DNA of 32,000 nt from assembly GCA_965224465.1 (NCBI GenBank), contig OZ245049.1, forward strand, positions 3,750,001-3,782,000, given 5' to 3'. The notes under the pieces were generated by a model, which worked only from the letters and a program-made list of their open reading frames with translations, was not told the DNA's origin and did not search any database. Numbering within the stretch: position 1 is the first letter of the stretch; each line of letters opens with the position of its first letter. The stretch is from Flavobacteriaceae bacterium. GTDB taxonomy: Bacteria; Bacteroidota; Bacteroidia; Flavobacteriales; Flavobacteriaceae. The position numbers and the translations under genes are program-made. This document shows, one piece after another, positions 1 to 32,000 of this stretch.

Positions 1-1
1 T

Positions 2-1708
2 ACGTTTAGAATGGACACACTTGAAGATCTAGAAGAAGAACTTGCAACCAACAGTAAGGAGTTTTTGGGGGAAACAATTTCCTTGCAAACGATTCCTGCA
101 AATGGTTTTGAAGACCGTTATGGCGAATTGACGTTTAAAGGTATTATTACCGAAATAAAAATCATAAAAGGGCATGAGGTAAGTGATGGTGATAAAGTAG
201 TTATAGTGGCAAAAAGCCCCGATTTTTTAACAAATGATGGTCCGCATTTTGCGTCTTACAACGATGTTTCCCTCTCAGAAATTATTGATAGTTCGTTTGA
301 AGGCTATGATACTTCAAAATTAGAAGTAGACATACGCCCTCAAAACAACCCTAGTTTGCATTATTCGGTACAGCATAACGAAAGTGCTTTTACGTATGTA
401 AGTAGACTTGCAGCACAATACGGAGAGTGGTTTTATTACGATGGAGCGAAATTAGTATTTGGAATGCCTGGTACCGAAGATTTAGAACTTACCTATGGAT
501 TTGATTTAGTAGAGTATCAGATACGTTTGATGCCTCAGTCCAACAATTACAAAATATTTGCAAATGATTATTTAACCGATGAGGTACAAGAAAAATCAAC
601 AAGCGAAATCAATGCCGGTTTAAGAGGTTTTGGAGGCTTTGTTTCTGAAAAATCAAATGCCATTTACAGAAAAGAAACAAAAATTTGGCACAATCTATAC
701 AGCGATACAGAAGTACAACAGCGTTTAGATACAGCAGTGGAATTACAGAAAAAAGCGATTGATGTAAAACAAGTAAAAGTACAGGGGGTTTGTGATAATC
801 CAGGGGTGAAAATTGGGAGTGTAGTTGTAATAGATGGGAATAGATACAGAATTATAGAGGTTACACATAGCAATAATGAAATTGGCGATTATACAAATAA
901 TTTTGAAGGAATCACCGCAGATATAAACGCATATCCATACACCAACATAAACGCATTTCCAAAAAGCGAAACACAGGTAGCTACCGTAAAAGAAAATGCA
1001 GATCCCGATGGATTGGGGCGCATAAGAGTGCAATTTCCATGGCAAGTGGAGTATAGCGAGTTAACTCCTTGGGTGCGCATTGTAACACCACATGGAGGAG
1101 CAAATAAAGGATTCCATTTTATACCAGAAATTGAAGAAAAAGTATTGGTAGGTTTTGAAGGTGGGAATGCAGAACATCCTTATATATTGGGGAGTTTGTA
1201 CACGGGAAATGCCAAACCCGAAGCGTTTAAAACCGACACCAACGATGTTAAAATTATAAGAACCCGCAGCGGACACACCATTGAACTAAATGATAAAGAT
1301 GGTGAAGAAAAAATACATATCTACGATAACGAAGGAAGTATCATCACTTTTGATACCCAAGCAAAATCCTTGTATATACAAGCTACGGAGAATATTGAAT
1401 TCCAAGCAAAGAATATTAAACTAAAAGCGAGCGAGAATATAGAACTAAACGCCGATCAAGAAATTAAAATAGCAGCAACGGGTAATGCATTATTAGCATC
1501 AGAGGCAGTTATAAACATACAAGCAGAAAGTGATGTTAACGTAAGTGCGAGTTCAAATATAACCATAGAAGCCACTAGTAATGCGAATTTTAAAGGACAA
1601 AGTGTTATTGTAGAAGGGCAAACATCAGCTGAATTTAATAGTGCCCAAACCAAAATTACGGGTAGTGGAATGATTGATGTTTCAGGAGGAATGATAAAAA
1701 TAAATTAA
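2..1708 (+). CDS. vgrG: VgrG (TssI) T6SS spike protein, 5' end cut by window edge
   Basis: The frame of ORF 11..1708 stays open to the window edge. Position 2 aligns to codon 37 of the complete copy at 16633..18447, with about ten aa differences. It carries the gp5-like OB-fold signature VRIVTPHGGANKGFHFIPEIEEKVLVGFEGGNAEHPYILGSLY, followed by beta-helix-like repeats (ENIEFQAKNIKLKASENIELNADQEIKI...). Confidence 0.9.
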   Translation, partial: TFRMDTLEDLEEELATNSKEFLGETISLQTIPANGFEDRYGELTFKGIITEIKIIKGHEVSDGDKVVIVAKSPDFLTNDGPHFASYNDVSLSEIIDSSFEGYDTSKLEVDIRPQNNPSLHYSVQHNESAFTYVSRLAAQYGEWFYYDGAKLVFGMPGTEDLELTYGFDLVEYQIRLMPQSNNYKIFANDYLTDEVQEKSTSEINAGLRGFGGFVSEKSNAIYRKETKIWHNLYSDTEVQQRLDTAVELQKKAIDVKQVKVQGVCDNPGVKIGSVVVIDGNRYRIIEVTHSNNEIGDYTNNFEGITADINAYPYTNINAFPKSETQVATVKENADPDGLGRIRVQFPWQVEYSELTPWVRIVTPHGGANKGFHFIPEIEEKVLVGFEGGNAEHPYILGSLYTGNAKPEAFKTDTNDVKIIRTRSGHTIELNDKDGEEKIHIYDNEGSIITFDTQAKSLYIQATENIEFQAKNIKLKASENIELNADQEIKIAATGNALLASEAVINIQAESDVNVSASSNITIEATSNANFKGQSVIVEGQTSAEFNSAQTKITGSGMIDVSGGMIKIN

Positions 1709-1724
1709 AACAAATAAATAAATT

Positions 1725-2417
1725 ATGCCAGGACCAGCAGCAACAATATCACACATGCACACATGCCCTATGTATAGTGGAACAAGCCCACATACTGGCG
1801 GCCCCATTATAGGCCCGGGAGTGCCAACAGTTTTAATAGGAGGAAAACCTGCCGCAGTAATGGGGGATCAATGTACCTGTTCGGGACCACCCGATGTAAT
1901 TGTAGAAGGTGTTTCTACCGTATTAATTGGCGGGAGACCCGCAGCTACTATGGGATCGAAAACAGGTCATGGAGGCGTAGTAAGCATTGGAGATCCTACC
2001 GTACTTATTGGTACAAGATGTAGTGCTCCTACCGCAATAATGCCCGTGAGTAAAATACCTTTTCCTAAAATATCTTTTAAAGATCGTATACTGACTTCTT
2101 TGTCGGGGAATTCATTGGCAGAAGCAGAAGCGAATCAAGCTGCTTTGAGAGAAGAAGAGGAAGGTGAGCCTCGTGTTTATAATTTACGTTGGATAAAAGA
2201 AGAAAGGCTAACCAAAAAATCTTCAGTACTAACACAAGTAACATTAAAGGCAAGTGTCGTTAATTTTGATGATGGAGAAAGTGTAACCTTTACTATTAAT
2301 TTACCAACCAAAGAAAAAGGAGGGGATACAGAACAGGTAACATTAACTGGAACAGTAAGAGATAAAGAAGTACAAGTGGTTTGGGAAACTAAGGATAAAC
2401 CAGAACAAACCTTATAA
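1725..2417 (+). CDS. PAAR-domain spike-tip protein with variable C-terminal extension
   Basis: Repeated PAAR-type motifs (LIGGKPAAVMGD, LIGGRPAATMGS, TVLIG) and Cys/His-rich loops. It starts 16 nt after vgrG. Codons 1-149 are near-identical to 18464..19177; the last ~80 aa are only distantly similar. Confidence 0.9.
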   Translation: MPGPAATISHMHTCPMYSGTSPHTGGPIIGPGVPTVLIGGKPAAVMGDQCTCSGPPDVIVEGVSTVLIGGRPAATMGSKTGHGGVVSIGDPTVLIGTRCSAPTAIMPVSKIPFPKISFKDRILTSLSGNSLAEAEANQAALREEEEGEPRVYNLRWIKEERLTKKSSVLTQVTLKASVVNFDDGESVTFTINLPTKEKGGDTEQVTLTGTVRDKEVQVVWETKDKPEQTL

Positions 2418-2422
2418 AAGAT

Positions 2423-5392
2423 ATGGCAGAGGTTGTAGAAGAAAAAAAAACAGGACAATATAATGGTATTCTGTATGAGTGTAGTTTTACGGCAGAGGGT
2501 AAAGGAGTTACCTGTGTAGAGCAGCCTGTACTTAAAGTGGTTAAACCAGGTGTGCGAATAAATTTGATGCGTATAGCCTTGATAAATAGAACACCTAAGT
2601 TTACGCCTTTAATGCTAGAGGGGGTTGGGAAAGATGAATTTATGCCATTGGAGACCCCAAAAGGTGCTCCAGACGTAGAAGGGTTAAGCAACTATGTATA
2701 TGCAAGTACAAGCTTAAGACCCGGGTTTTTATATGTAATCAACGAGAGTGATTCAGATGGTTGGAGTGAATGGGAAGTAGGATTAGGAGGGTGGCTTAAA
2801 GAGATAGATAAATCGCAAGCAGAAAGTGATTTTAGAAAAGTCACATCAGATGCTGTAGTAATTGATCAGTATGTTGCAGAACCTACAGATGTTTTGTGGT
2901 TTGCGTACTCAGAAATACAATGGAGTGCAGATTATTTTAAAAGCATGCGTGATGATAGTTCTAAACGGGGCACTCGTATGCAAAAATATGACTTAATTAA
3001 ACATGTTAATAATGAGTCTCAAAACGATGCAGCATCTTGGGATATAATGAAAAATAATTTTCTGATTATCCCCGAAAATAAATTGGATTATAATGTTACA
3101 CAACAAAATTATACAATAGCTTCTTTTGATGAAACCAATAATACCGAAAGTTATAAACTGGATGCTATCCTATGTCTACATGATCCAGTAGGGATATTTA
3201 TAGAACATTTTTGTTATCTAAAATACCTATGGAATAAGATGGATTATTTAATGATTTCATTAAAAATAGGGAAAGAAGTTAGCGATATAGAAAGAGCTTT
3301 GGCAAAAGGTCAAGATCCAAGATTATTACAAAACGCTGAAAAACTTGAGCAAATAGATGCGCTTTACAATATTGCTGTTAATATACGTGCTGTTGCTTTT
3401 TCAGATCAAGAAAGTATAGATAAAATAGGTGATAATATTGATGCAAAAAGGTTAAACAAAGTATTAGCTACTGAAGAACGATTGCTAATTAAAAATAAAA
3501 TTGTCAAAAGTAAAATGGTTTTTGCAAAATTTATTGAAAGTGATTATTTTAAAAGAATAAAGCAAGATTATTTTGAGAACACTCCTAATGTAATAATGGA
3601 AGGAAAATTTTTATTTGCTAGTTTAATGGTTGATTTGTGGAAACCTGCAAATTTTAAAGACAGTTTTTTAGAAACCGTTGACGAGAGTGCACAATGGAAT
3701 GCCAGTACAAAAGAAGGAAAAGAGTTTATTATAAAAGTATTAAATCGTAAAAATTTCTTAGGAAAATTATTTAATACCGTTACACTCTTAGAGGATGTTG
3801 AGGAAAATTCAAACAACCTAAAACTTATAAAGATTATCGATGCACTGTTTGATGTGGCAAAAGGGGTTGCTGAAGAGGGTGATGAAGTACTGAAACTGTG
3901 GGTTGCTATGATGAATAGTACTCGCTTAAAAATAAACGGGAAGGTGGTAGTAGCAACTTTTGAGCTTACTACAATGGCTAAAGAGTATAGGAAATCTTAT
4001 GTTGGGCGCTCCGACTTTGTGAAAAACACATTAAACATCAATAAAAAATCCTATAAAAAATTCAAAAAAGCAACAAATGAACTGAGTGAAGGGTTTATGG
4101 AACTTATGGAGTCCAAACAAATTAAGCTTACTGCTAGTTTTGAAAAAGCGATAAAAAGTGAAACTTTAAATGGCATGAAGAATTTTCAAGCTAGCTACTT
4201 CTGGAGGAAATTAATGCGTAGTCTTAGTTTTGTTAATCTTGCCTTGGCAACAGCTGCTCTTAGAAAGTCAGATAGTAAATTTCAAAAACTTTTAAATATA
4301 AGTAAATTTTTAACCGCTATTTCCGAGGTAAATGTACAGGTACGTAATGTAAAAGCAATGCGACTGGTTGGAGATGAATTAGAAGTTTTTAAAATAGCTA
4401 CAGAGAAGTTGTCAATTAGAGTGATGTATGCGGGAGCTGTGATTGATATAGCCGAAGCAGGGCTTAATTTTTGGGAACGCGATTACGATGCGGCTTCCGC
4501 GTATGCAGGAGCGGCGGTCACAGGATTATTGGCAGCTTTAATATTAGGGGGTACAATAAATATATGGAATCCAATAGGATGGGGATGTCTTATATTAGGA
4601 GCTTTGCTTGGTTTTTATGCAGCTTATTTGGAAGACTCCCCTTTAGAGCGTTTTGCTAAAAACGGAGTATTTGGTAGCATTCCTTCTAAGTATATATTTT
4701 GGAAAACTGTTGATTTTGATGAGAATAATGGTTATTTAAAGTATATAGAGGAGCATGTAAAAGAAACAACTAGAGTTGCTTTACATAAAACAGGCTTTGG
4801 TGATTGGGCAGACTATCCTACGCAATACAAGGATTTTATGAATATTTTAATAGGAGGTAGAATACATATTAAAATAAATAAAAATGATGAAGTAGAGATA
4901 GGCGAAACAATGAAAGCGGGTTCGTATGCCGATAAATCGAAAGTCATATTAAAAACATTTCTAATAAAAAAAATACAAGTGACTGCCTTTTTTGGTAGCT
5001 ATTTAACAGATAAAGAAGCATTAGAATATCATGTTTTTTACTTGCCTCAAGGTTTTGGAAAGGAAGCAGAAGAGGTAACTACTTTTTTATGCCAAAGTAA
5101 TATTACCATAAGTACTCTCAAAAGCCAAGTGCCAAAAGCACATTGGTCTATTGATTTAGAGTATCTTTATGATGTTAATAAATATTCTCAGATTATTATT
5201 ATGTGTCGTTTAAATATAAATAACAATCAATTTTTTCCAATTCCAAAAAAAACAATTCCACGTTATATTGCGGTAACAATACCTGTGATTCGAAATGATT
5301 CGCAGTCAGGATTTGTTTATAGAGATGGTCTCAATGATCGTGTTTATGTTGGGACACAACAAGAATTACTAAATAAAAAAATATGGAAATAG
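2423..5392 (+). CDS. Large T6SS effector, VasX-like N-region plus glycine-rich TM helices (putative membrane-disrupting toxin)
   Basis: 989 aa, starting 5 nt after the PAAR stop. N-region motifs are shared with 19189..22542: KPGVRINLMRIAL, LRPGFLYVINE, WSEWEV, LWFAYSEIQWS, LCLHDPVG. These resemble the VasX N-terminal / BTH_I2691-type effector pattern (PvRYal, lRxGwlYv, vqWs, lxDPxG). Hydrophobic Gly-rich helices lie at about 4430-4635 (AYAGAAVTGLLAALILGG...GWGCLILGALLGFYAAYL). Confidence 0.6.
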   Translation: MAEVVEEKKTGQYNGILYECSFTAEGKGVTCVEQPVLKVVKPGVRINLMRIALINRTPKFTPLMLEGVGKDEFMPLETPKGAPDVEGLSNYVYASTSLRPGFLYVINESDSDGWSEWEVGLGGWLKEIDKSQAESDFRKVTSDAVVIDQYVAEPTDVLWFAYSEIQWSADYFKSMRDDSSKRGTRMQKYDLIKHVNNESQNDAASWDIMKNNFLIIPENKLDYNVTQQNYTIASFDETNNTESYKLDAILCLHDPVGIFIEHFCYLKYLWNKMDYLMISLKIGKEVSDIERALAKGQDPRLLQNAEKLEQIDALYNIAVNIRAVAFSDQESIDKIGDNIDAKRLNKVLATEERLLIKNKIVKSKMVFAKFIESDYFKRIKQDYFENTPNVIMEGKFLFASLMVDLWKPANFKDSFLETVDESAQWNASTKEGKEFIIKVLNRKNFLGKLFNTVTLLEDVEENSNNLKLIKIIDALFDVAKGVAEEGDEVLKLWVAMMNSTRLKINGKVVVATFELTTMAKEYRKSYVGRSDFVKNTLNINKKSYKKFKKATNELSEGFMELMESKQIKLTASFEKAIKSETLNGMKNFQASYFWRKLMRSLSFVNLALATAALRKSDSKFQKLLNISKFLTAISEVNVQVRNVKAMRLVGDELEVFKIATEKLSIRVMYAGAVIDIAEAGLNFWERDYDAASAYAGAAVTGLLAALILGGTINIWNPIGWGCLILGALLGFYAAYLEDSPLERFAKNGVFGSIPSKYIFWKTVDFDENNGYLKYIEEHVKETTRVALHKTGFGDWADYPTQYKDFMNILIGGRIHIKINKNDEVEIGETMKAGSYADKSKVILKTFLIKKIQVTAFFGSYLTDKEALEYHVFYLPQGFGKEAEEVTTFLCQSNITISTLKSQVPKAHWSIDLEYLYDVNKYSQIIIMCRLNINNNQFFPIPKKTIPRYIAVTIPVIRNDSQSGFVYRDGLNDRVYVGTQQELLNKKIWK

Positions 5393-6252
5393 ATTTAGAA
5401 TACCAACATGCACAAAAATTTAAGAGTAAATACTTACGGCCTTTGCCTTTTGTAATTCGTACAGATTCACTTCAAATTGATATTAAAACCAAACAGAATA
5501 AAAAATTATACCCTATTTTTAATAACAATTGTATCAAACGATTTATTCCTTCAAATAAGAATATTTCAAAAATGGATATTTATATGCATATAGGTATTTG
5601 TTCCTTTTTTTGGATACTAATACCTATAATTGAACTTATAGATAATGGAGGTATTGATATGATCGTTTTTGCTTTTATAATTCCTTTAGGATTGCCTTTT
5701 CCTTTTATGGCTTATAGGTCTTTTAAACAATATAACATAGCTCCTGAACAAACTTTTGTTACTTTTGATCGGCTTAATAGCTTATTAACAATGCCTACAT
5801 CAGATGAACAAAGTTATTTTACCATACCTTTTTCACATTTAATCGCGGGAGAGGCTGTAACAGGAACCAAACATACTTATGGAGGTAAGTTTTTAGCTTT
5901 TATAAATGATACCAAACCTGTAATGTTCCGGCCATGGAGACCAGACGATTATATATCTTTAAATTATGCAGCTACTACCCCAAAAGAGATATGGTCATAT
6001 TACGTTTGGTATATGGATAAAAACCGTCCCTTACCTGAGTGTGAAGCTTTTGATGAGTTTAGAGAAAAAGATTTTGAGCGTCGTAAATTAGCAGGGTTTC
6101 CGCCACCGTTATTTAAGAGTAGGGTTCCAACCCCAGAGGCAAGCCTGGAACAACAATTACTACGTGAAACTTTTTGGAAAGACGAAGATTATATGGCTAC
6201 AAAAAACGAAGCTTTTCACAGTATATTTTTTAAAAGACCAAAAGAGAAATAG
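5383..6252 (+). CDS. Putative 2-TM membrane immunity protein (WYMDKNRPLP family)
   Basis: The ATG overlaps the effector stop (ATGGAAATAG). Two hydrophobic helices (GICSFFWILIPII, MIVFAFIIPLGLPFPFMAY). The C-terminal motif YVWYMDKNRPLPECEAFDEFREKDFERRKLAGFPPPLF is shared with 11926.., 13585.. and 22536... Confidence 0.6.
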   Translation: MEIDLEYQHAQKFKSKYLRPLPFVIRTDSLQIDIKTKQNKKLYPIFNNNCIKRFIPSNKNISKMDIYMHIGICSFFWILIPIIELIDNGGIDMIVFAFIIPLGLPFPFMAYRSFKQYNIAPEQTFVTFDRLNSLLTMPTSDEQSYFTIPFSHLIAGEAVTGTKHTYGGKFLAFINDTKPVMFRPWRPDDYISLNYAATTPKEIWSYYVWYMDKNRPLPECEAFDEFREKDFERRKLAGFPPPLFKSRVPTPEASLEQQLLRETFWKDEDYMATKNEAFHSIFFKRPKEK

Positions 6253-23324: not shown

Positions 23325-23338
23325 AAGTTGATAGCGCA

Positions 23339-23433: not shown

Positions 23434-26361
23434 GTATCATTAGAAAATACAGATGATGTTTTTGAGTTTTTAAGTAATGAAAAAAAAGATGGAAAAGAAG
23501 AACAATATTTTACAAATATTATAGCAGGTACAAAATTAAAAACAAGCCTATCTTACAAAGTAGATATTAAAGCAAATACACCCATAAAAGTACTTAAAAT
23601 TAAAGGAGATTACGCACAAATAAAAGTAACATCTATTACTGCAACCTTAGTTAGAGATACCGATATTAATGATAACGTAAAACCATTTAATAGCAATAAA
23701 CTTTATACTATCAAAAATCTTACTACGGTTAATAAAGCATTTAATGGTCTTGCAACTAAAGATGCCACATTCAATACAAAACAAGTAAAAGCACCAAGAA
23801 ATTGGAGAACAAATTTAAACAGAACTGTTACCTTTTACCCAAATGGCTATGGTAAAGTGATTTGGATAGAAAAAACATCTATTTCCAAAATAGCAGAAAA
23901 AATAAAAAAAGAAGCAGGTATAATTACCTCAATTATTCCTGACTATTTTTTAACAGAAGAACAAAAATACGAAACAGTTGAAAGAGAAGCCAAAACAGGA
24001 GAAAAAACTACATTATATGTAGATGTATGTAAGGCATATATCGAAGTCCCTTTTAGAACCGATGTAGAAGAAGTAACTGTAGAAAAAGAAAAAGTAGTTG
24101 ACTTACGTAAATTTAAAAAAGCAAAAGACGATAAAAAAGACCTTTGGTATAAAGTAGTATTAGATGATACAACTAGTAGCCAATGTGTAGCAGTAAAAGG
24201 CTGGGTAAAAGAAAAGGATCTTGACAAATTTAGCGCTTACGATTGGCAAAAATTTGGTTTTAAAGATCTAGACGCAGGTAATGAATACATATACTCTGTA
24301 AAAGACTTATGTAAGGCAACAGATAGTACCGATTTTGTAACCGAAATTTGGGATAAAACAATAGATACAGATGGCAATAAAGTATTAGATATACTAGAGC
24401 TTATTAGAGCCTTTAGTAAACCAGAAATAGCACAAAAACTATCTCGTTTGGTATGTAAGCACAAAAATGAATGGTCTTATACTATGGACGAAATAAAACC
24501 AGAAGTAAAAGAACTCTATGATTTTGGTATACAATTAGAAGAAGTTACAGCCGAAAAACAAAAACTAGAAACCGAAAGGGATGATAGTTTAGCCAAAATG
24601 GAAACCAAAATAGAAAATTTAATGTGGTGGGATGAGGCAAGTAAAAAAACCTACACAGCACCCGTAAAAGAAGAAGATAAAACAAAAACGAGTAGCACCA
24701 AAAGACCTTCTATGTTGCCAGAAGGTACAGTGGTAGAAGAAATACCACAAAAAGATGTTGTACCTTTAGACAATAAAACAACAGCAGTTAAACCAGATGC
24801 TAAACCAACGAAAGATAGTATACCAACGACAAGTACAACCGCTGCTCCAACACCAGAAACTAAAGTAGAAGAAAAAGAAGTGCCACCAGAACGTATGTTT
24901 CCAAGTACAAATATAGTACATCACTTTCATCCTATTGCTTGGGTGGAGCAGATGAGGTTGATATTTGAAAAACAGACGGGAGAGTGCTATTGTAATAGAG
25001 ATTTTACTGTGGAAGAAGTTACAAGAATTATCAAAAGACTAAGAAAAAATGAAAACCTTAGTGGCAATTCTATATTAAGTCATGACAACTGTAAGATAAC
25101 CAATAAATCATTTGATAAACTTACAGAAGAACTAAATAAAACCATCGCTAAATACAAAATATCACAATGTATACAAAAAATACACTTTATAACTCAACTT
25201 TATCATGAATCTGCCAGATTTACTACTGGTCTAGAATTTGATAATGGAAATTATTACAATCCTAATGGAGGACATCCTGAAGCAAAAAACAATGGTAATA
25301 TTCAAAGTGGAGATGGGCCACGGTATAAGGGTCGAGGATTTATGCAATTGACATGGAGAAATACACAAATAAAATACTTAAAATATGCTTCTAAAAATAC
25401 AGAAGGGAAATTAAAAGGGAAAACAGATTCTGAATTGGAGTTACGAAGTAATAACTATCAAAAATATATTTCTGATGATTTAGGATATGCTATGGATTCT
25501 GCAGGTTGGTTTTGGAGTAATTATAAAAAAATAGAGTTTAGTAAAAAAGAAAATAAAAATAGATATGCACATATAATAAACAAACCTTTAAATGAGGTCG
25601 CTCTAAATGAAGATAAATATTTGAGTTTAATTTCCAAATTTATCAATGGAGGTAAAAAAGGGATTAAGAAGAGAGCAAATTATTATCAAATATTAAAAAG
25701 CGTCTTTAGATATGAGGTAGATTGTATTAATAATATTGCCTCATCAAAAGAAGAAGTAAATCAATCCTTACCACCTTGGTTGAAAGTTGCTTTTGAAGAA
25801 TACAATACTCATTTAGGATATATAGAAGAAGAGAAAACTTTAAAAAATCGCATAGAAAAAGTATATTTTGGCTCAACCCAAAATAAAAGTTTGAAATACA
25901 CGGATCCATGGTGTGCTGCTTTTATAAATTATTGTTATTTAAAAGGAGGTCTATCATATAAAAATTTAACAGGGATTCAAGTTAGGGCTTTTGAATGGGG
26001 ACCGTTTAATAATAAATTTTTAATTACCAAAAGAAAAAATATTGGAGGTTGGAAAGAAGGAGAAGATTATGGTAAACCTTTTCTTGGAGCATTAGCAATA
26101 TACTCTGGAAGTCATGTAGGTTTTGTTGTTGGTAAAAATACTAGAGGCAAAATAGTTCTGTTAGGAGGTAACCAAAATGGAGTTATTGGTAATACTAATG
26201 TTGGTGGAGATGAAAGTGTTTGTTTCTCATCATACCCAGCAAATAAAATACTTTTTTACATGAAGCCTAAGGGTTTTATTGTTCCTCCTGAAATAGATGA
26301 AGAAAATTTACCTATTATAAATATTAGTAACCCAACAGAAACATTTGCCTCACTTAGATAA
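23383..26361 (+). CDS. Modular PG-hydrolase T6SS effector (GH19-like muramidase + TIGR02594/NlpC-P60-like peptidase C-terminus), intact
   Basis: 992 aa. The GTG start directly follows an in-frame TGA, and the first in-frame ATG is codon 368. SH3b-like segments ([10 protein letters not shown]...[12 protein letters not shown]), coiled-coil, PT-rich linker and [14 protein letters not shown]19 motifs: HFITQLYHESARF...GPRYKGRGFMQLTWRNTQ. TIGR02594-like motifs: PPWLKVAFEEY...DPWCAAFINYC...SHVGFVVGKN...LLGGNQNG. Confidence 0.85.
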   Translation: MSARNVSRKGLRKKVIYVSLENTDDVFEFLSNEKKDGKEEQYFTNIIAGTKLKTSLSYKVDIKANTPIKVLKIKGDYAQIKVTSITATLVRDTDINDNVKPFNSNKLYTIKNLTTVNKAFNGLATKDATFNTKQVKAPRNWRTNLNRTVTFYPNGYGKVIWIEKTSISKIAEKIKKEAGIITSIIPDYFLTEEQKYETVEREAKTGEKTTLYVDVCKAYIEVPFRTDVEEVTVEKEKVVDLRKFKKAKDDKKDLWYKVVLDDTTSSQCVAVKGWVKEKDLDKFSAYDWQKFGFKDLDAGNEYIYSVKDLCKATDSTDFVTEIWDKTIDTDGNKVLDILELIRAFSKPEIAQKLSRLVCKHKNEWSYTMDEIKPEVKELYDFGIQLEEVTAEKQKLETERDDSLAKMETKIENLMWWDEASKKTYTAPVKEEDKTKTSSTKRPSMLPEGTVVEEIPQKDVVPLDNKTTAVKPDAKPTKDSIPTTSTTAAPTPETKVEEKEVPPERMFPSTNIVHHFHPIAWVEQMRLIFEKQTGECYCNRDFTVEEVTRIIKRLRKNENLSGNSILSHDNCKITNKSFDKLTEELNKTIAKYKISQCIQKIHFITQLYHESARFTTGLEFDNGNYYNPNGGHPEAKNNGNIQSGDGPRYKGRGFMQLTWRNTQIKYLKYASKNTEGKLKGKTDSELELRSNNYQKYISDDLGYAMDSAGWFWSNYKKIEFSKKENKNRYAHIINKPLNEVALNEDKYLSLISKFINGGKKGIKKRANYYQILKSVFRYEVDCINNIASSKEEVNQSLPPWLKVAFEEYNTHLGYIEEEKTLKNRIEKVYFGSTQNKSLKYTDPWCAAFINYCYLKGGLSYKNLTGIQVRAFEWGPFNNKFLITKRKNIGGWKEGEDYGKPFLGALAIYSGSHVGFVVGKNTRGKIVLLGGNQNGVIGNTNVGGDESVCFSSYPANKILFYMKPKGFIVPPEIDEENLPIINISNPTETFASLR

Positions 26362-26365
26362 AATT

Positions 26366-27376
26366 ATGAAAATAAAGATATTCTTATTAGCACTGCTAAT
26401 TATCATTTTCTCATGTAAAGAAAATAAAAAAGAAGTACATATTCAAGAAAAAAATGTAGATGTATTTAGATTAGAAATAATCAAATCAAAAAAAAATAAA
26501 AAATTTGGGTATGCAGAGAAAACGGTTTTTAAACTTTTAAATAATAATAAAAACATTGACAGTTTATCTGTAATAATACCCTATTCTGATTGTGAAAATA
26601 ATGAAACTATATGTGGTATTAATTATTTGAATGGCTCATTCAAAGTCTCAGATTTAAACAATGATTCTTTTAAAGAAATTCAATATGCTTACCACCATTA
26701 TATAAAATCAGAACAGTTGCCTAAAAGTTTAAAAATAATATTATTTGACACAAAAGATAATAAGAGGTATTTTATTGATGGTTTAGGTGTAAATAAATTT
26801 GATGAATTAACAATTGATAATCCAATAGGACAGATAATAGAAATAAGTAAAAAAACCCCAAAAATTTTCTTTAAGGCAATGAAAAACAAATGGATTAGTT
26901 ATTCTTTTGAACATAAATTACCAAAAATAAAAGAAGAAAAAAAAGTTCAAATAATTGTTATAGAAGAAAGTTCAAATAATAAATCTAATAATTTCGAATA
27001 TGAATTATTACCAAATATTAAGACAGTGAAATTAATTGGTGGAGATAAGGAAAATATAGAAATATTATTAAAAAACAATGAAATATATAAATTTGAAAAT
27101 CCTATTTTTCAAATAGATTATCACGAAATAGAACTTATAAAGAACAAGATTGTTAGATTAAAAAACATGGACAATAAACGTAGTTATATTGAAACATTTT
27201 GGTTTTTTGATGATAAAAAAAAATCATTAATTTTATTTAAATCATATGCAGAATCATATGATTTTGGTAAAATAACTAAATATAAACTTAATAATATTAA
27301 TTACGATATAAAAACAATTAATAGTGATGCGTTTTTTGATGAGATTTATAATTCAGATAATGAAATAACAGATTAA
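26366..27376 (+). CDS. Lipoprotein, putative periplasmic immunity protein
   Basis: The ATG lies 4 nt after the effector stop (the track start 26345 is an upstream TTG overlapping the effector). Signal plus lipobox MKIKIFLLALLIIIFSC|KENKK. Confidence 0.7.
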   Translation: MKIKIFLLALLIIIFSCKENKKEVHIQEKNVDVFRLEIIKSKKNKKFGYAEKTVFKLLNNNKNIDSLSVIIPYSDCENNETICGINYLNGSFKVSDLNNDSFKEIQYAYHHYIKSEQLPKSLKIILFDTKDNKRYFIDGLGVNKFDELTIDNPIGQIIEISKKTPKIFFKAMKNKWISYSFEHKLPKIKEEKKVQIIVIEESSNNKSNNFEYELLPNIKTVKLIGGDKENIEILLKNNEIYKFENPIFQIDYHEIELIKNKIVRLKNMDNKRSYIETFWFFDDKKKSLILFKSYAESYDFGKITKYKLNNINYDIKTINSDAFFDEIYNSDNEITD

Positions 27377-27519
27377 CATTAGAGGGGATTTAATATCTAA
27401 TTATGGAAGTCGGAAAGATGTGGCAGTAAATATTAGGATACACTAGAGCTTATTAGAGCGTTTAGTAAACCGGAAATAGTACAAAAACTATCTCGTTTGG
27501 TATGTAAGCACAAAAATGA

Positions 27520-29160
27520 ATGGTCTATACTATGGACGAAATAAAACCAGAAGTAAAAGAACTCTATGATTTTGGTATACAATTAGAAGAAGTTACAGCC
27601 GAAAAACAAAAACTAGAAACCGAAAGGGATGATAGTTTAGCCAAAATGGAAACTAAAATAGAAAATTTAATGTGGTGGGATGAGGCAAGTAAAAAAACCT
27701 ACACAGCACCCATAAAAGAAGAAGATAAGACAAAAACGAGTAGCACCAAAAGACCTTCTATGTTGCCAGAAGGTACAGTGGTAGAAGAAAAACCACAAAA
27801 AGATGTTGTACCTTTATACAATAAAACAACATTAGTTAAACCAGATGCTAAACCAACGGAAGATAGTATACCAACGACAAGTACAACCGCTGCTCCAGCA
27901 CCAGAAACTAAAGTAGAAGAAAAAGAAGTGCCACCAAAACGTATGTTTCCTAAAAGCAATATAGTACATCACTTTCATCCAATTGCTTGGGTGGAGCAGA
28001 TGAGGTTGATATTTGGGGAAGGTGGTGAAATTTCTGAAATCTGTTATGCAGAAGCAAGAGTTAAGGCATTTATGAGAATGTTGCGTATTGGGGAAGGATC
28101 TGTTGGTGAAAAAGGTTATTATACTTCTTATGGAGGTCGAACGATGACTAATTTAAGTACTCGTCAAGAAACTGTATATGAGGGCTCTAGTGCTTCAGGA
28201 GGGTACCAATTTATAAATAAAACTTATTGGGGAATGCAAGGGTTTACAGTTGTGAAAAATAAAAAAGTAGGAGACGCTGATCCTAAAAAAGACCTTATAA
28301 CAAGATATAAAATACCAGATTACGAACCATTATCTCAAGATAAGTTGTGTATTATCTATATGAAACATTACGGAAAAGGGCTAATAGAGTTACTTGCTGA
28401 AGGGCAAATAGAAAAAGCTATTAGAACAAAAGCGAGTAAAATTTGGGCTAGTTTACCTAATGAAGGTATACCTTTCGAACATAAAAAAAGTAGATACCTA
28501 ATGCCAGATGGTCTTAGGTATCAACCAGCAGAACATATGAGTGATAGCTGTTTGATGAATTACCGTAAGTTTTATAGAGAAGAAGTAAAAGGCATAACTG
28601 ACTTATATTTACAACCAGGTTTTTTAAAAGAATTTGGTTTTAATTGTTGTAAAGATGATGATACTTTATCTAATAATGAGGGTGGGTGGCCTGTTAGGAA
28701 ATCTCATAATGGTCATAAAAGAAGATTTGGAAGTCCTTTTGGACCTAGAAATGGAGGTCAACATCGTGGAATTGATATGAATTTTGGTTCTGGATATGAT
28801 GATTATGGTGCGCCTGTAATAGCTACACATGATGGCGTTGTGAGAAAAGCACAAGAAAATGATGATAAAACTGAAGGAGCAGGAAGAAGAGTAACGATAC
28901 AGTCTGAAGATGGGACTTTTCAAACAAAATATTTTCATTTAAGTGTTTTTTTAGTAGATATAGGAGATAAAGTAAAAAAGGGACAAATTATTGGTGAAAT
29001 AGGTTCTTCTGCTTTTGCTAAAGAAAATGGAACTGATTGTCACTTGCATTATGAAATACATAAAAAAAATTCAGCAGGAAAAATGGAGCATTATAATCCT
29101 ACCGAAGGGAAAGCTAACACAGGAGAAAACATAGTAGATCCACAAACTTGGATTAAATAA
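27520..29160 (+). CDS. Orphan PG-hydrolase toxin module (GH104 lambda-type lytic transglycosylase + M23 peptidase)
   Basis: Homology to the full-length gene starts about 27410. A 1-nt deletion at about 27528 relative to the other copies (tggtctatact vs tggtcttatact) puts a TGA just before ATG 27520. The MDEIKPE...[12 protein letters not shown] arm is conserved. Lambda-R-like motifs: RVKAFMRMLRIGEG, SASGGYQFINKTYW, IWASLPNEG..FEHKK. M23 motifs: HRGIDMNFG...YFHLS...GTDCHLHYEI. Confidence 0.8.
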   Translation: MVYTMDEIKPEVKELYDFGIQLEEVTAEKQKLETERDDSLAKMETKIENLMWWDEASKKTYTAPIKEEDKTKTSSTKRPSMLPEGTVVEEKPQKDVVPLYNKTTLVKPDAKPTEDSIPTTSTTAAPAPETKVEEKEVPPKRMFPKSNIVHHFHPIAWVEQMRLIFGEGGEISEICYAEARVKAFMRMLRIGEGSVGEKGYYTSYGGRTMTNLSTRQETVYEGSSASGGYQFINKTYWGMQGFTVVKNKKVGDADPKKDLITRYKIPDYEPLSQDKLCIIYMKHYGKGLIELLAEGQIEKAIRTKASKIWASLPNEGIPFEHKKSRYLMPDGLRYQPAEHMSDSCLMNYRKFYREEVKGITDLYLQPGFLKEFGFNCCKDDDTLSNNEGGWPVRKSHNGHKRRFGSPFGPRNGGQHRGIDMNFGSGYDDYGAPVIATHDGVVRKAQENDDKTEGAGRRVTIQSEDGTFQTKYFHLSVFLVDIGDKVKKGQIIGEIGSSAFAKENGTDCHLHYEIHKKNSAGKMEHYNPTEGKANTGENIVDPQTWIK

Positions 29161-29189: not shown

Positions 29190-30116
29190 ATGTCTATTTT
29201 TATAAATCGAATTATTATAATTTGCACAATTATATGTTTATTTTCTTGTAAAATTAATGAGAAAGAAAAAAATGAAGGTGTCAAAATTCAATCAGATTTA
29301 CAAACATCTTCTAAAGTTACTTCAGAAAAAAAAACTAATACAGAATTTGTAACATACCTGTATTCAAAGAGAAAGTCGGATGGGGAAGGTGAAGAACACA
29401 CAATGCAAGAATTAAAAATACAATGGAATGATAGTCTTAATATAAAATTTAAGATAGTCATGAAAAACCTGATGTGTGAAATGAAAGATAAAGGAGAAGC
29501 TTCACTAATAGGAAAAAACACTTATCAAGTAAAAAATAATTCAGTTATAAAACAATTAAAATTTGATAATAATAAGAATGAAGTAGAGTTAGTTTGTAGC
29601 TATGGTAAGTATCAAGGTGAATGTGATCCTATGCAGCAATTGTTAATGACAACAACTTCTTTTACTGGTAAAAGTGAGTTGAGAAAAGATTTTTTGGAAA
29701 AGGAAGAAGCTATTACATATGAAACTATTTATGAGCTTAAAAAGAGGAAGTTTTCAACAGATTGTTCAAGTGATGATTATGTTTTCTTTTTAGTTGCTGG
29801 ACAGTTTATAACAAAAAATATTTTTTTTAATTCACGACTTAAAAGAATTAATGAGACAGAGTATTATATTTATTTTTCGCCACCATTATTAGCCCCTGTA
29901 CCAAGTAGTTTAAATGATGCCGCTTCTTTTTCTTTGAGTAAACCAATAGGTAAGATTGTTAATAATACAGAAGGTCAAATACAGTTTGAATGGTATGGTT
30001 TTTATAATAGAAAAACAAAAAAAAGAGAGTTTAAGCAAAACCCTTTTACAAATAAAATAGAGAATGGTTCTATTGTTTTAAAATGGTGTGATATAGGTAA
30101 TGTCGATGGTTTTTAA
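29190..30116 (+). CDS. Lipoprotein, putative periplasmic immunity protein
   Basis: Signal plus lipobox MSIFINRIIIICTIICLFSC|KINEKEK. It starts 29 nt after the toxin stop. Confidence 0.7.
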   Translation: MSIFINRIIIICTIICLFSCKINEKEKNEGVKIQSDLQTSSKVTSEKKTNTEFVTYLYSKRKSDGEGEEHTMQELKIQWNDSLNIKFKIVMKNLMCEMKDKGEASLIGKNTYQVKNNSVIKQLKFDNNKNEVELVCSYGKYQGECDPMQQLLMTTTSFTGKSELRKDFLEKEEAITYETIYELKKRKFSTDCSSDDYVFFLVAGQFITKNIFFNSRLKRINETEYYIYFSPPLLAPVPSSLNDAASFSLSKPIGKIVNNTEGQIQFEWYGFYNRKTKKREFKQNPFTNKIENGSIVLKWCDIGNVDGF

Positions 30117-30228
30117 TCCCCGATCCCGCCAGTTCAATGTTTTTAAGTTAAGAATTTAATCATTTAAAAATTAGTATTTTAAATTTACTTTAATCAAGTA
30201 TACATAAATAGCACAAAAACTATCTCGT

Positions 30229-31986
30229 TTGGTATGTAAGCACAAAAATGAATGGTCTTATACTATGGACGAAATAAAACCAGAAGTAAAAGAACGCTGT
30301 GATTTTGGTATACAATTAGAAGAAGTTACAGCCGAAAAACAAAAACTAGAAACCGAAAGGGATGATAGTTTAGCCAAAATGGAAACCAAAATAGAAAATT
30401 TAATGTGGTGGGATGAGGCAAGTAAAAAAACCTACACAGCACCCATAAAAGAAGAAGATAAAACAAAAACGAGTAGCACCAAAAGACCTTCTATGTTGCC
30501 AGAAGGTACAGTGGTAGAAGAAATACCACAAAAAGATGTTGTACCTTTAGACAATAAAACAAAAGCAGTTAAACCAGATGCTAAACCAACGGAAGATAGT
30601 ATACAAACGACAAGTACAACCGCTGCTCCAGCACCAGAAACTAAAGTAGAAGAAAAAGAAGTACCACCAAAACGTATGTTTCCTAAAAGCAATATAGTAC
30701 ATCACTTTCATCCAATTGCTTGGGTGGAGCAGATGAGACTTGTTTTTGGAGAGGGTGGCGGAGATTGTGAATCTCTTATTTGGGGAAATAAAGTAAGTTG
30801 TGAATTTAGAAAACGAGTAATTCAAATATCTAAACGTCTTGAATGCGATCCTAATCATTTAATGGGAGCTATGGCATTAGAAACTGGAGGGAAATTTGAC
30901 CCTAAGGTCGATAATGGTTTAGGTAAAGACAAAGATGGTATTGGTTACATCGGATTAATTCAGCTTGGAAATGATGCTATAAAAGATATGAATAGGAATT
31001 ATTTTCTACATAGGGCAAAAATTAAAAAGAAAGATTTAAGAGCAATGTCTGCCGTAGAGCAATTATGCTATGTAGAATATTATTTAGCCAAACATAAAGG
31101 TAAACTTAAAACCTTAGCAGATTTTTATTTAGCAATACTTTGGCCAGATGCAGTAGGTCACGGTAATGAACCTAATTATATTGTTTTCGATGATGAGGCT
31201 AGTGGTAATAAGAAAAGAGCATATTACTCAAACCCTACGTTTTTTAGAGAAGATGATGAGTTTAAGAAAAATAGTAAGGGAAAAATATACGAAAGACATG
31301 GTAAAACAGGAGGTAAAACGTATGTATGGGAAATAGCTGAAGCCATACAAGAATGGTATGATAAGGGAGTGCCTGAAAAAAACACTTCTAGTAACTGTAC
31401 TTGTAATACAAATTGCTCATGTTGTAAATGTATTGATTTAACAAATAAGGTTATTTGGATAAGTCAGTTTAACAAAAGTGAACGTAGAAGTAATGGCACT
31501 ATGAAAACAGATGGATGCTGGAGAACTTCCCAAAAATTATTAATTGATGCAGGCTTAAGTAAAACTTCGGGTTATAAAACAGGGATGATTATAACAGCAT
31601 TAGAGGATGATGCTCATACTTCTTTATCTTTGACAAAGAGAGTAAAAGATGGTGTCGATTATATTGACTCTGAACTAGAAAAAGGAAATCCTGTCTTAGT
31701 TGGTCTAAATCATACCATTAACTATAGACGCAATGGTAAAATAATTAATGCAGACTCCTCACTAGGAGACCCAGGAACTACAGATCATTATGTGGTTGTC
31801 ATAGGTAGAGGATGTGAAAAAAATAAAGTGTATTATCGTTTTTATGAAGTAGGTACAAGTTGGGCACATTATGGGCAAAACTCTAGAAATAAATTATTTT
31901 TAGGAAGTGACTTTTCTTTAAAGGGAAGTCCTGGAAATAATAAAGAAAAAAAATATACAGTAAGTCAAGTACGAAAAAATCAATAA
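30229..31986 (+). CDS. Orphan PG-hydrolase toxin module (SLT-like transglycosylase + papain-fold Cys peptidase/amidase)
   Basis: Homology to the full-length gene starts at about 30206, directly after an in-frame TAA. The first ATG is 30265 (MDEIKPE); the track start is TTG. The arm is conserved up to [15 protein letters not shown]-like motif: HLMGAMALETGGKFDP...GYIGLIQLG. Candidate Cys/His pair: TDGCWRTSQ ... GTTDHYVVVIGRG. Confidence 0.75.
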   Translation: MVCKHKNEWSYTMDEIKPEVKERCDFGIQLEEVTAEKQKLETERDDSLAKMETKIENLMWWDEASKKTYTAPIKEEDKTKTSSTKRPSMLPEGTVVEEIPQKDVVPLDNKTKAVKPDAKPTEDSIQTTSTTAAPAPETKVEEKEVPPKRMFPKSNIVHHFHPIAWVEQMRLVFGEGGGDCESLIWGNKVSCEFRKRVIQISKRLECDPNHLMGAMALETGGKFDPKVDNGLGKDKDGIGYIGLIQLGNDAIKDMNRNYFLHRAKIKKKDLRAMSAVEQLCYVEYYLAKHKGKLKTLADFYLAILWPDAVGHGNEPNYIVFDDEASGNKKRAYYSNPTFFREDDEFKKNSKGKIYERHGKTGGKTYVWEIAEAIQEWYDKGVPEKNTSSNCTCNTNCSCCKCIDLTNKVIWISQFNKSERRSNGTMKTDGCWRTSQKLLIDAGLSKTSGYKTGMIITALEDDAHTSLSLTKRVKDGVDYIDSELEKGNPVLVGLNHTINYRRNGKIINADSSLGDPGTTDHYVVVIGRGCEKNKVYYRFYEVGTSWAHYGQNSRNKLFLGSDFSLKGSPGNNKEKKYTVSQVRKNQ

Positions 31987-31990
31987 CTAA

Positions 31991-32000
31991 ATGAAAAAAA
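31991..32000 (+). CDS. Start of next ORF (ATGAAAAAAA..., MKK), probably the cognate lipoprotein immunity gene; cut by window
   Basis: The ATG lies 4 nt after the toxin stop, the same spacing as at 26366. Only 10 nt are visible. Confidence 0.3.

Follow-up and report, generated by a model that had tools for sequence, protein, structure and literature searches.

The shuffling of toxins by recombination is already known, and the orphans of the Rhs and CdiA systems are truncated at differing 5' points. The window analyzed here, by which we mean the whole stretch of 32,000 nt, belongs to a marine Flavobacteriaceae chromosome most closely related to Aquimarina and Tenacibaculum, and it contains two tandem T6SS auxiliary islands, A and B, that are neighbors in the same orientation. 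Both islands encode a VgrG, a tailed PAAR, a VasX-family pore-forming toxin and a membrane immunity protein, and behind them lies a series of predicted 5'-truncated PG-hydrolase toxin cassettes, each with a lipoprotein as putative immunity gene (all features are on the forward strand unless stated otherwise). Island B starts with two Hcp genes (15108–15494 and 16152–16547), both matching TssD PF17642 (E ~1e-52 to 2e-52 and ~1e-47 to 3e-47, respectively), which together with VgrG and PAAR bears out the Bacteroidota-type T6SS context proposed in an earlier note on this DNA. Island A carries in addition two displaced modules, each a toxin 3' remnant plus immunity gene, and an IS66 fragment. The two paralogous islands described in that note are thus both present, but they are not collinear, since their block order differs, and they are members of a larger paralogous family in the genome. 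Specifically, one contig of 5,241,564 bp bears the proteins of both islands, and the protein records place at least seven PAARs, at least six VasX_B-type versions and at least 12 PG cassettes on it; it is from such records that the other islands of the genome, and the full-length PG partner locus with its PAAR, are known. Tandem repeats lie at 15492–15935 and 10659–11055. We propose that recombination-driven modular toxin diversification among paralogous T6SS auxiliary islands is the best explanation of this locus, and we consider this likely.

The delivery parts of the two islands are near-identical while the toxins and lipoproteins are divergent or unrelated, as had been claimed. The vgrG_A gene (1–1708; ORF as listed 11–1708), which is cut by the window edge ~107 nt past its start, has 97.9% nucleotide identity to vgrG_B (16633–18447, 604 aa; Phage_base_V E = 1e-23, Phage_GPD E = 2e-10), and the two differ by 26 synonymous and 10 non-synonymous codons, the latter agreeing with an earlier count of about ten amino acid differences. 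The core (residues 1–97) and helical linker (98–149) of PAAR_A (1725–2171; PAAR_motif E = 2e-20) differ at three positions from those of PAAR_B (146/149 identical), whose gene (18464–19177, likewise with a Pfam hit) divides into core plus linker at 18464–18910 and tail B at 18911–19177. An AF2 model of PAAR_B (pLDDT 81), the core of which matches PDB 4jiw, has the core at residues 1–97, helices at 118–143 and a five-stranded beta domain at 150–231. In a self-BLAST of the window this first block of identity extends over 1–2299 versus 16740–19038, where its 5' end is the window edge and no biological boundary. Direct comparison of 1–2171 with 16740–18910 gave 46 mismatches and zero indels at an offset of 16739 throughout, exactly the constant offset noted previously, and a likelihood change-point scan put a step in the mismatch rate directly after 2171 (2.1% up to that position, 40% over the next ~130 nt and then ~71%), in accordance with the claim that identity there is lost stepwise rather than gradually. 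The ~130 nt past 2171 are homologous but divergent tail sequence, and the ~71% beyond is what random sequence gives. Position 2171 is PAAR codon 149/150, the start of the C-terminal beta domain or tail; tail A (2172–2417) is 36% identical to tail B.

Homologues of this PAAR fall in two classes, tailed proteins of ~230–260 aa and tail-less ones of ~150–160 aa. A VasX_N protein lies directly after all of the tailed PAARs that have enough downstream DNA (12/12), versus 0/~76 of the tail-less ones. Moreover, tail identity tracks the identity of the VasX N-terminus (Spearman 0.77, Mantel p = 0.0005), and within seven closely related loci (those of the window and five from the genome collection, L001–L005) the correlation is 0.73 (p = 0.0025); within the same seven loci, the PAAR core and linker correlate negatively with the VasX N-terminus. 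The toxins themselves are VasX A (2423–5392, 989 aa; VasX_N E = 3.6e-17, hydrophobic segments in residues 690–736) and VasX B (19189–22542, 1117 aa; VasX_N E = 1.2e-12, hydrophobic segments in residues 795–875). A profile search found no DUF4123, Eag or DUF2169-type adaptor in any ORF of the window, which upholds the earlier remark that adaptor- or chaperone-like genes are missing, and a Foldseek search with the tail gave zero significant matches, so that its fold does not identify a known adaptor. The PAAR tail probably does the job of an adaptor, which would explain the missing adaptor gene, and from the association and covariation we infer that it binds VasX physically, as a built-in adaptor choosing which toxin loads on an otherwise identical spike. 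The covariation could, however, stem from linkage alone, because the tail and the VasX N-terminus adjoin on the DNA. Finally, a patch at PAAR residues 85–91 and the PAAR class occur in all four combinations among at least seven paralogues on one contig, and this four-gamete incongruence supports gene conversion among them.

The second block (6309–7923 versus 23339–24955) is 97.8% identical with one indel. A single indel of 8 versus 10 nt had been reported; there is indeed one, but it is a complex replacement of 13 by 15 nt (6874–6886 / 23904–23918) that frameshifts the gene in island A. The end of the block at 7922/24954 is the final base of a conserved motif of 11 residues. The last ~550 nt are present in four copies (7340–7923, 24372–24967, 27421–28015 and 30203–30752), which had been missed, and the motif boundary is common to all four, to at least 12 genomic paralogues and to distant homologues. 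Both breakpoints, the PAAR linker/tail boundary and the pre-toxin motif, are module boundaries in their own right and recur within and between genomes. The earlier note's description of this block as an effector N-region does not hold; the region is internal, since full-length relatives bear ~330 extra N-terminal residues. Such relatives sit directly after a tail-less PAAR in loci L008, L007 and L010, and the same genome encodes a full-length paralogue, P0128. Because of these extra residues, all four PG-hydrolase genes of the window are, on sequence comparison, best described as 5'-truncated cassettes without the ~330-residue family N-terminus. Their truncation points differ from copy to copy. 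Cassette A (6353–9302; ORFs 6353–6910 and 7416–9302) has its motif at 7890–7922 and a toxin part with PG_binding_1 and phage lysozyme domains; its frameshifted junction is seen again in P0131. The putative immunity lipoprotein directly after it (9253–10254) has a signal peptide followed by a cysteine and zero Pfam hits. Cassette B (23383–26361) is a 992-aa ORF with the motif at 24922–24954 and a weak CHAP hit in the toxin part; family homology begins at residue 23 (TDDVFEFL), aligning near residue 330 of P0128, and its putative immunity lipoprotein (26345–27376) also has a signal peptide then a cysteine. Orphan cassette 1 (27440–29160; ORF 27520–29160, motif 27970–28002) encodes an M23-peptidase toxin, and orphan cassette 2 (30203–31986; ORF 30229–31986, motif 30703–30735) a lytic-transglycosidase-like part and a C39-like peptidase, with PDB sequence matches to 9udh (E = 3e-19) and 9jdd/9jg8 (E = 1e-26). 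The metagenomic locus L008, whose VgrG and PAAR are only 38% and 63% identical in amino acids to those of the window, shares the M23 toxin and immunity of orphan 1 at 83.5% nucleotide identity from the HFHPIA codons on; the putative immunity lipoprotein of orphan 1 (29190–30116) has 69% amino acid identity to that at L008:11738–12427. L008 also has its own orphan beginning at the linker. The sharing of a cassette that starts exactly at the motif suggests exchange between lineages.

Between the blocks the sequences had been described as distant homologues or unrelated, and this agrees with amino acid identities of ~20% for toxins A and B and ~37% for Imm_A (5383–6252, 289 aa) and Imm_B (22536–23324, 262 aa), and with lipoproteins that are essentially unrelated between the islands. 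Both immunity proteins, assigned as such by position, have hydrophobic segments and directly follow their toxin genes, and at least nine versions of Imm_B are in the protein records of the genome. The third block (12669/12686–14492 versus 21618/21637–23449 by self-BLAST, 95%) is interrupted by a ~95-nt divergent patch at 13836–13930, within the immunity gene. Its contents, an effector 3' end, an immunity gene and a junction, are as had been described, but the island A copy is not part of that island's own effector. It is a displaced 3' VasX remnant of B type (12688–13591; 287-aa ORF 12728–13591, 95% nucleotide identity to 21637–22542) with its immunity gene (13585–14367, 260 aa, 90% amino acid identity to Imm_B), beside a second remnant and the IS66 fragment. 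The B-type remnant is identical to P0203, and two further 287-aa versions are in the same genome. Hence position ~12688 is not a cargo-specifying boundary, as had been thought, but the truncation point of this remnant; that breakpoint is not accounted for by homology. The second remnant is the 3' end (162 aa, 11435–11925) of a third VasX-type toxin, with 59–60% blastx identity to the C-termini of P0181 (named toxin VasX of Tenacibaculum sp. in its source) and P0179 (toxin VasX of Tenacibaculum mesophilum), and is followed by an orphan immunity gene (11926–12621, 231 aa, two hydrophobic segments, 30–40% identical to Imm_A and Imm_B). The IS66-family transposase fragment (10913–11434, reverse strand, C-terminal 173 aa; DDE_Tnp_IS66 E = 1e-28, profile positions 185–283 only) truncates the 162-aa remnant on its 5' side. 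A 36-aa CHAP-type toxin remnant lies at 10259–10366 (blastx, 69% identity to residues 1091–1125 of P0132). The two toxin 3' remnants with immunity genes beside an IS66 fragment support displacement.

A single recent tandem segmental duplication, with ordinary divergence and diversifying selection on the cargo but no ongoing recombination, fits the adjacency and shared orientation of the islands, the fairly even block identity (95–98%) and the mostly synonymous changes in VgrG. It is nevertheless very improbable, as identity falls from 98% to ~60% to random from one position, the toxin domains and lipoproteins are unrelated and not merely diverged, block order differs, four-gamete incongruence is found among at least seven PAAR paralogues and a distant lineage shares one cassette from exactly the motif on; the present data point instead toward breakpoints at 2171 and the motif. 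Blocks of 0.5–2.2 kb at 95–98% identity are classic trouble for short-read assemblers, and in so repeat-rich a locus a mis-joined or duplicated repeat might have produced the duplication or some of the mosaic. Such an artefact is barely credible, however, given 46 well-spread, mostly synonymous substitutions between copies with intact ORFs, unique flanks for each copy, and the presence on one 5.24-Mb contig of both PAAR and VasX versions, two B-type immunity versions and more paralogues; moreover, assemblers usually collapse such repeats and do not create them.

The earlier note took the PG-hydrolase genes for complete functional effectors with their own start. On that view they would be loaded by another route, e.g., Hcp or VgrG, rather than being silent truncated cassettes. 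Cassette B is an unbroken ORF with its start codon inside the conserved junction, the start and first 22 codons within that junction are kept in three copies, an intact immunity gene accompanies each cassette, and each orphan has a start codon close to its 5' end and was annotated as a protein by gene callers; even lacking the family N-terminus, cassette B might indeed be expressed and delivered. We nevertheless regard this reading as unlikely, since all full-length relatives in other lineages have the ~330 N-terminal residues (three directly after a tail-less PAAR), as does P0128 in the same genome, the island A copy is frameshifted, with the same junction in P0131, and the truncation points vary as in Rhs and CdiA orphans. 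The junction, a 111-nt element whose presence in three copies in the window (6309–6419, 14382–14492 and 23339–23449) had not been reported, might instead be an attachment site for site-specific or transposon-linked cassette movement, as in integrons, with homologous recombination not the main driver. It lies at three module boundaries, contains a perfect 10+10 hairpin (GCGCGGATTT-N-AAATCCGCGC), has a GC content of 41% versus 32% for the window and comes after two different immunity genes and before two different downstream sequences, that after the second copy being unrelated; an IS66 fragment is also at hand. Yet no gene for an integrase or recombinase lies in the window, the IS66 copy there is a fragment, none of the 85 related loci contains the junction, the whole element folds no better than shuffled sequence (z = -0.1) and the best-supported breakpoints lie within coding homology, away from the junction, all of which makes such movement quite improbable. 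The junction element is not accounted for by homology.

The essence of the mechanism we favor, recombination among paralogous islands, is that homologous recombination and gene conversion would generate a mosaic of ~98%-identical and unrelated segments, in which incoming modules would displace old ones and leave remnants, and surviving crossovers would sit at module boundaries. One crossover site would be the PAAR linker/tail at codon 149/150, and the tail and the VasX toxin would therefore travel together. The other would be the ~33-nt motif-coding sequence, between the shared delivery/linker region and the variable double-enzyme toxin domains of the PG effectors. Truncated cassettes that keep the linker homology may be silent and form a reservoir. 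A full-length effector gene behind a tail-less PAAR at another site could then acquire a new toxin and immunity end from such a cassette, which would amount to actual switching. Within the known shuffling of toxins by recombination, these islands are a clear new example with two new details.

Every long ORF in the window but one lies on the plus strand, and the genes form an upstream island (A) and a downstream island (B). Island A consists of a vgrG whose 5′ end is cut by the window, followed by genes for a 230-aa PAAR protein, a 989-aa VasX_N protein (PF20249, E = 3.6e-17) and a 289-aa membrane protein, and then by a junction element and a frameshift-split peptidoglycan (PG)-hydrolase gene, cassette A (6353-6910 and 7416-9302), in which a PG_binding_1 and a phage lysozyme domain are encoded. 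Next come a lipoprotein gene and a 36-aa CHAP remnant, and an IS66 transposase fragment is encoded on the minus strand. The island is closed by a 162-aa C-terminal remnant of a third type of VasX (11435-11925) with its immunity gene (11926-12621), a 287-aa remnant of the C-terminus of the island B type of VasX (12688-13591), also with an immunity gene (13585-14367), and a second copy of the junction. This copy is followed, at 14493-15107, by a pair of short ORFs, of 99 and 95 aa, that may be additional decayed remnants of modules; they weakly resemble a PAAR tail (in the related locus L013, E = 5e-9) and the C-termini of VgrG (E = 1e-3 to 6e-6). Island B opens with a pair of TssD-type Hcp genes (15108-15494 and 16152-16547; PF17642, E = 2e-52 and 3e-47), vgrG (604 aa) and the PAAR gene (237 aa), the latter two with Phage_GPD, Phage_base_V and PAAR_motif matches. 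A 1117-aa VasX_N protein (PF20249, E = 1.2e-12), an immunity gene, the junction, a 992-aa PG-hydrolase with a weak CHAP match (cassette B) and a lipoprotein follow. Two further PG-hydrolase genes are orphan 1, an M23 peptidase toxin, and orphan 2, which combines a lytic-transglycosidase-like with a C39-like peptidase domain (PDB sequence relatives 9udh and 9jdd/9jg8). A lipoprotein gene stands after cassette A, cassette B and orphan 1, and the gene after orphan 2 is beyond the window end. The window has features of auxiliary islands of the Bacteroidota-type T6SS (T6SSiii), namely TssD-type Hcp (in island B) and, in both islands, a gp27/gp5-like VgrG and then a PAAR cone.

Self-comparison of the window recovers all three long blocks of near-identity that the earlier note had described between the islands. 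Block 1 (1-2171 and 16740-18910) runs at a constant offset of 16739 without indels, as had been read from the sequence, and contains 46 mismatches (2.1%); its 5′ limit is the window edge because vgrG_A is cut there. VgrG has exactly 10 residue differences, where about ten had been estimated, and 26 of its codons differ synonymously and 10 non-synonymously; three differences fall in PAAR residues 1-149. Gradual decay of identity, which would have spoken against a sharp boundary, is not what is seen: a likelihood change-point scan places a step exactly after 2171, with dense mismatches from 2172. A second, weaker step lies near 2305, beyond which the sequences are unrelated, and the ~130-nt shoulder between the two steps is residual homology of two divergent versions of one protein domain, not gradual decay. 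Block 2 (6309-7923 and 23339-24955) is 97.8% identical; the one indel reported for it is present, but it is a complex replacement of 13 nt by 15 nt (6874-6886 and 23904-23918) rather than a difference of 8 versus 10 nt. Block 3 (~12686-14492 and 21637-23449) is 95% identical. Inside its otherwise 98-100% identical immunity genes lies a patch of ~95 nt with ~50% identity and a 6-nt indel (13836-13930 and 22787-22886), which alters one transmembrane-proximal segment of the immunity protein and may be either a short tract of gene conversion or a stretch that sets specificity. The earlier note had missed that the last ~550 nt of block 2 are present four times in the window and the 111-nt junction three times, and also two tandem repeats.

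An AlphaFold2 model of the PAAR protein (mean pLDDT 81) comprises a cone (residues 1-97), two helices (118-143) and a separate five-strand beta domain (150-231), and its core matches PDB 4jiw in Foldseek (TM 0.80 normalised to the target). From this layout, the step at 2171 is the start of the C-terminal domain, termed the tail. PAAR homologues fall into two length classes, one of ~230-260 aa that covers the full query and one of ~150-160 aa that covers only residues 1-149. Across 85 fetched loci and the window, a VasX_N protein directly follows 12 of the 12 tailed PAARs that have enough downstream DNA, and none of ~76 tail-less PAARs; a metagenome scan by PAAR core patterns had yielded 80 loci, most of them with generic 96-aa PAARs that were used as negative controls. 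Tail identity is correlated with identity over the VasX N-terminal 260 residues in 11 non-redundant PAAR-VasX pairs (Spearman 0.77, Mantel p = 0.0005). Linkage alone could produce this correlation, given that the tail and the VasX N-terminus adjoin on the DNA. Among seven closely related loci, comprising the window and L001-L005 (five genome-collection loci from species other than the source), the correlation for the tail is 0.73 (p = 0.0025), and the correlations for the PAAR core and linker are negative and non-significant. Taken together, association and covariation favour a tail that moves with the VasX toxin and would specify it. The tail was also considered as a TTR or other known adaptor fold and this was rejected, as Foldseek gave no PDB match with E < 0.3 outside the PAAR core. 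Effector-recruiting PAAR proteins that are extended by a C-terminal domain (e.g., TTR-type) were reportedly described by Shneider and colleagues in 2013. The window PAARs resemble these in having a small cone with an extra domain, a gene that adjoins that of the cargo effector and no separate adaptor gene. They differ in that the ~80-aa five-strand domain has no significant PDB match and in that its proposed role is drawn from association and covariation. In L001 (Tenacibaculum caenipelagi, 18215-20689) and L004 (an uncultured Flavobacteriaceae MAG, 5110-8352), cargo is joined to this PAAR in a third manner, by direct fusion of the PAAR core and linker to Het-C / phospholipase-C-like toxin domains in proteins of 825 and 1080 aa.

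Both large toxins of the window are assigned to the pore-forming VasX toxin family by their N-terminal VasX_N (MIX-type) domain. V. cholerae VasX depends on a separate DUF4123 adaptor (VasW), whereas Pfam detects no DUF4123, Eag or DUF2169-type adaptor in window ORFs of at least 125 aa, which we regard as an accessory and not a defining feature. The VasX-family pore-forming T6SS toxins include VasX, Ptx2, Tke5 and the Bacteroidales toxin Bte2 (PMC12718326). Like them, the window toxins have the VasX_N N-terminus and a membrane immunity gene that adjoins the toxin gene; a long region with hydrophobic segments near the C-terminal third (2-3 hydrophobic 19-mers in a Kyte-Doolittle scan) may correspond to the transmembrane region of the family. 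The two are only ~20% identical to each other and, unlike the known members, toxins of the window type always stand behind a PAAR with a dedicated C-terminal beta domain. The VasX-type family has been described as having 'a lack of recognizable modularity' (PMC12718326), but here the N-terminus and the body have different nearest relatives, and C-terminal remnants and immunity genes persist as orphans. Specifically, the N-terminus of VasX_B, as well as its tail, is nearest to L001 and its body is nearest to L003, and thus the toxins are themselves mosaic. In the source genome the B-type VasX exists as a full-length gene, a split copy (400 + 708 aa) and three different 287-aa remnants, and its immunity protein has at least nine versions. 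A further VasX-family match of 24% identity (P0197, 1119 aa) was assembled from a eukaryotic transcriptome (eukprot, TRINITY), where it most likely stems from contaminating bacteria or from the transcripts of a symbiont.

The second boundary lies within the PG-hydrolase genes, where positions 7922 and 24954 are each the last base of the Met codon of a pre-toxin motif of the type HFHPIA[WF]xxxM. The motif is encoded on the plus strand in all four window copies (7890-7922, 24922-24954, 27970-28002 and 30703-30735), which are ~95-97% identical up to it and unrelated past it. It closes the common region in these four copies and in 12 or more paralogues recorded from the same 5,241,564-bp contig; beyond it lie lysozyme, CHAP, M23 or C39-like domains, and in distant homologues a degenerate HFHPIA[WF] likewise precedes differing toxin domains. 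The shared middle region has no Pfam match, and an exhaustive HMMER search with it against 1.84 billion representative proteins gave 139 clusters (50%-identity library), many of them full-length (900-1560 aa) and several of them short, with a start in the linker or at the motif. Whether 7922/24954 is a recurrent breakpoint had been raised as a check, and it does recur, within the genome in the paralogues and between genomes in L008, a metagenomic locus on a 572-kb contig. The M23 toxin and lipoprotein gene of L008 are 83.5% nucleotide-identical to those of the window over 1.9 kb; the similarity starts within 2 nt of the first HFHPIA codon, the upstream linker has no nucleotide similarity and the VgrG is just 38% identical. 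It is this single cassette that lends comparative support to a possible replacement of toxin tips by recombination.

Full-length members of the family (P0128 from the source genome and P0132, P0133, P0138, P0140 and P0141 from elsewhere) have ~330 extra N-terminal residues that include an SH3_3 domain. In the 992-aa ORF of cassette B, family homology begins at residue 23 (TDDVFEFL), where the 111-nt junction stops, and homology to the conserved region starts at 27440 in orphan 1 and at 30203 in orphan 2. The full-length N-terminus is encoded directly after a tail-less PAAR of 154-158 aa in L008, L007 and L010 (the order in L008 being VgrG, PAAR, full-length effector, lipoprotein, linker-start orphan, lipoprotein), and the source genome has at least four 153-aa PAARs. 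Given these full-length relatives behind tail-less PAARs and the 153-aa PAARs of the source genome, the window PG genes can be read as truncated, and we propose that all four are 5′-truncated cassettes that belong to a second effector class and have been deposited behind islands of the VasX class. The missing ~330 residues may be the part that is recognised by the tail-less PAAR. Within that region (residues ~1-330 of P0128, P0132 and P0133; 6468-7460 in L008) the motifs WHGGIHLEG ... ATHLEVF resemble, by sequence reading, a degenerate M23/LytM fold interrupted by the SH3_3 domain, and the C-terminus of the tail-less PAARs has a conserved GYLxDFxxS[ILM] ending. The PG copy of island A is frameshifted, and the same frameshift junction is found in the paralogue P0131. 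Homopolymer slippage or sequencing error is ruled out as its origin, as the 13-nt versus 15-nt replacement includes substitutions and the junction peptide recurs in P0131.

The 111-nt junction lies after three different immunity-gene copies and gives the next ORF its start codon and first 22 codons. It has 41% GC, compared to 32% for the window, and contains a perfect 10+10 GC-rich hairpin, GCGCGGATTT-N-AAATCCGCGC, at 6322-6342, 14395-14415 and 23352-23372. The hairpin is neither a tRNA fragment nor a known RNA, as no tRNA was detected by ARAGORN and the Rfam matches did not exceed chance level. An integron-like role for the junction would be a weak explanation, as the element is absent from all 85 fetched loci and its whole length folds no better than shuffled sequence. 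It is also unlikely that the duplication of the islands is an artefact of assembly, in that the copies are set apart by differences at 2% of sites, most of them synonymous, each copy has unique flanks, and the protein sets of both islands are recorded on the same contig. At least seven PAAR paralogues on this contig, whose protein records are the basis of the genome-wide comparison, are identical over residues 1-107 save for a three-residue patch at 85-91, and among them both patch types occur with both PAAR classes, tailed and short, in four combinations. In our view, these combinations, together with VasX_B and its immunity versions and the remnants in island A, speak for ongoing exchange and against one single duplication. 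Other repeats were seen in the window. Four tandem copies of a 111-nt unit (15492-15935; 96-99% identical), which begin at the Hcp1 stop codon, fill the Hcp1-Hcp2 spacer and are followed by two copies of a ~55-nt unit (15936-16046); this spacer is only ~100 nt in L002, L004 and L005, the three related loci where it is readable. A 199-nt direct tandem duplication (10659-11055) overlaps the IS66 transposase fragment at its 3′ end, and a perfect inverted repeat of 20 nt around a loop of 20 nt (10410-10469) is located just downstream of the lipoprotein gene. Neither the 111-nt tandem unit nor the 199-nt repeat has a counterpart in the 85 fetched loci.

In the auxiliary clusters of V. cholerae, T6SS effector-immunity modules undergo sequential displacement (Kirchberger et al., 2017; PMC5361080). 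There, as here, the hcp-vgrG 5′ part is conserved and the effector-immunity 3′ part is variable, incoming modules take the place of the effector and shift the former immunity genes, together with 3′ ends of effectors, downstream, mosaic clusters arise by homologous recombination, and orphan modules resemble active pairs elsewhere. The trailing region of island A fits this model, with its IS66 fragment and two modules (11435-12621 and 12688-14367) that are effector 3′ remnants with orphan immunity genes downstream of the active pair. The differences are that this is T6SSiii in Flavobacteriaceae and not T6SSi in Vibrio, that the upstream crossover is inside PAAR at a domain boundary, that one genome has many paralogous islands, and that a second class of toxin, with truncated cassettes, is added on. 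The PG-hydrolase genes share with Rhs, CdiA and MafB toxins a conserved delivery region, a short pre-toxin motif and a variable toxin with a cognate immunity gene, as well as 5′-truncated downstream orphans that are homologous up to the motif, so that toxin-tip swaps by recombination are possible. In contrast to Rhs and CdiA, they have no YD repeats, VENN or DPxGL (no Pfam match) and by sequence belong to neither family. These systems also differ in motif, which here is HFHPIA[WF]xxxM, and in toxin type, which here is a double PG hydrolase whose immunity protein is a lipoprotein. In addition, the full-length gene codes for a cargo effector and follows a tail-less PAAR, and the orphans of the window adjoin islands that carry another effector class. 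Bifunctional PG-hydrolase T6SS effectors are known from Acinetobacter (PMC11796386) and among the WHIX double-toxin effectors (PMC12135965); these also join a glycosidase or lytic-transglycosylase-like domain to a peptidase domain in one cargo effector, but they differ in delivery region, phylum and cassette/orphan organisation. By analogy, the mechanism might work like orphan-cassette toxins of the Rhs/CdiA type combined with a V. cholerae displacement array.

The essence of our tentative scheme, which we consider possible but somewhat short of an even chance, is two-level cargo selection and toxin switching on one nearly invariant spike, by means of a PAAR-tail adaptor plus a silent cassette library. 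At the first level, the ~80-residue PAAR beta domain would be a previously undescribed built-in adaptor that replaces DUF4123-type chaperones for Bacteroidota VasX/MIX toxins. At the second, the more than 12 5′-truncated PG-hydrolase cassettes behind islands would form a silent library, and recombination at the 33-nt motif-coding sequence would bring them into the full-length effector gene, a toxin variation analogous to cassette switching of the pilE/pilS type. Recombination-driven toxin diversification, orphan cassettes and displaced immunity genes are already established in Proteobacteria. The strictly VasX-coupled PAAR beta domain and the HFHPIAW-delimited PG-hydrolase effector family both appear to be undescribed, as no description of the domain or of the family and its motif was found in the literature searched; as the coverage of this literature was incomplete, the negative result is weak evidence of novelty. 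Cargo choice and loading in the Bacteroidota-type T6SS are poorly understood, and the two islands amount to a natural experiment, in which 10 of 565 VgrG residues and 3 of 149 PAAR core residues differ and just the tail and the adjacent VasX diverge. As only these differ on near-identical spikes, tail swaps could test cargo specificity directly. If the tail is an adaptor, PAARs that are alike in their core would load different VasX toxins via the tail alone. The PG-hydrolase effectors constitute a polymorphic family of ~139 clusters outside Pfam with a sharp pre-toxin motif, and this motif could be used for mining toxin-immunity pairs in marine Flavobacteriaceae, including the fish pathogen Tenacibaculum.
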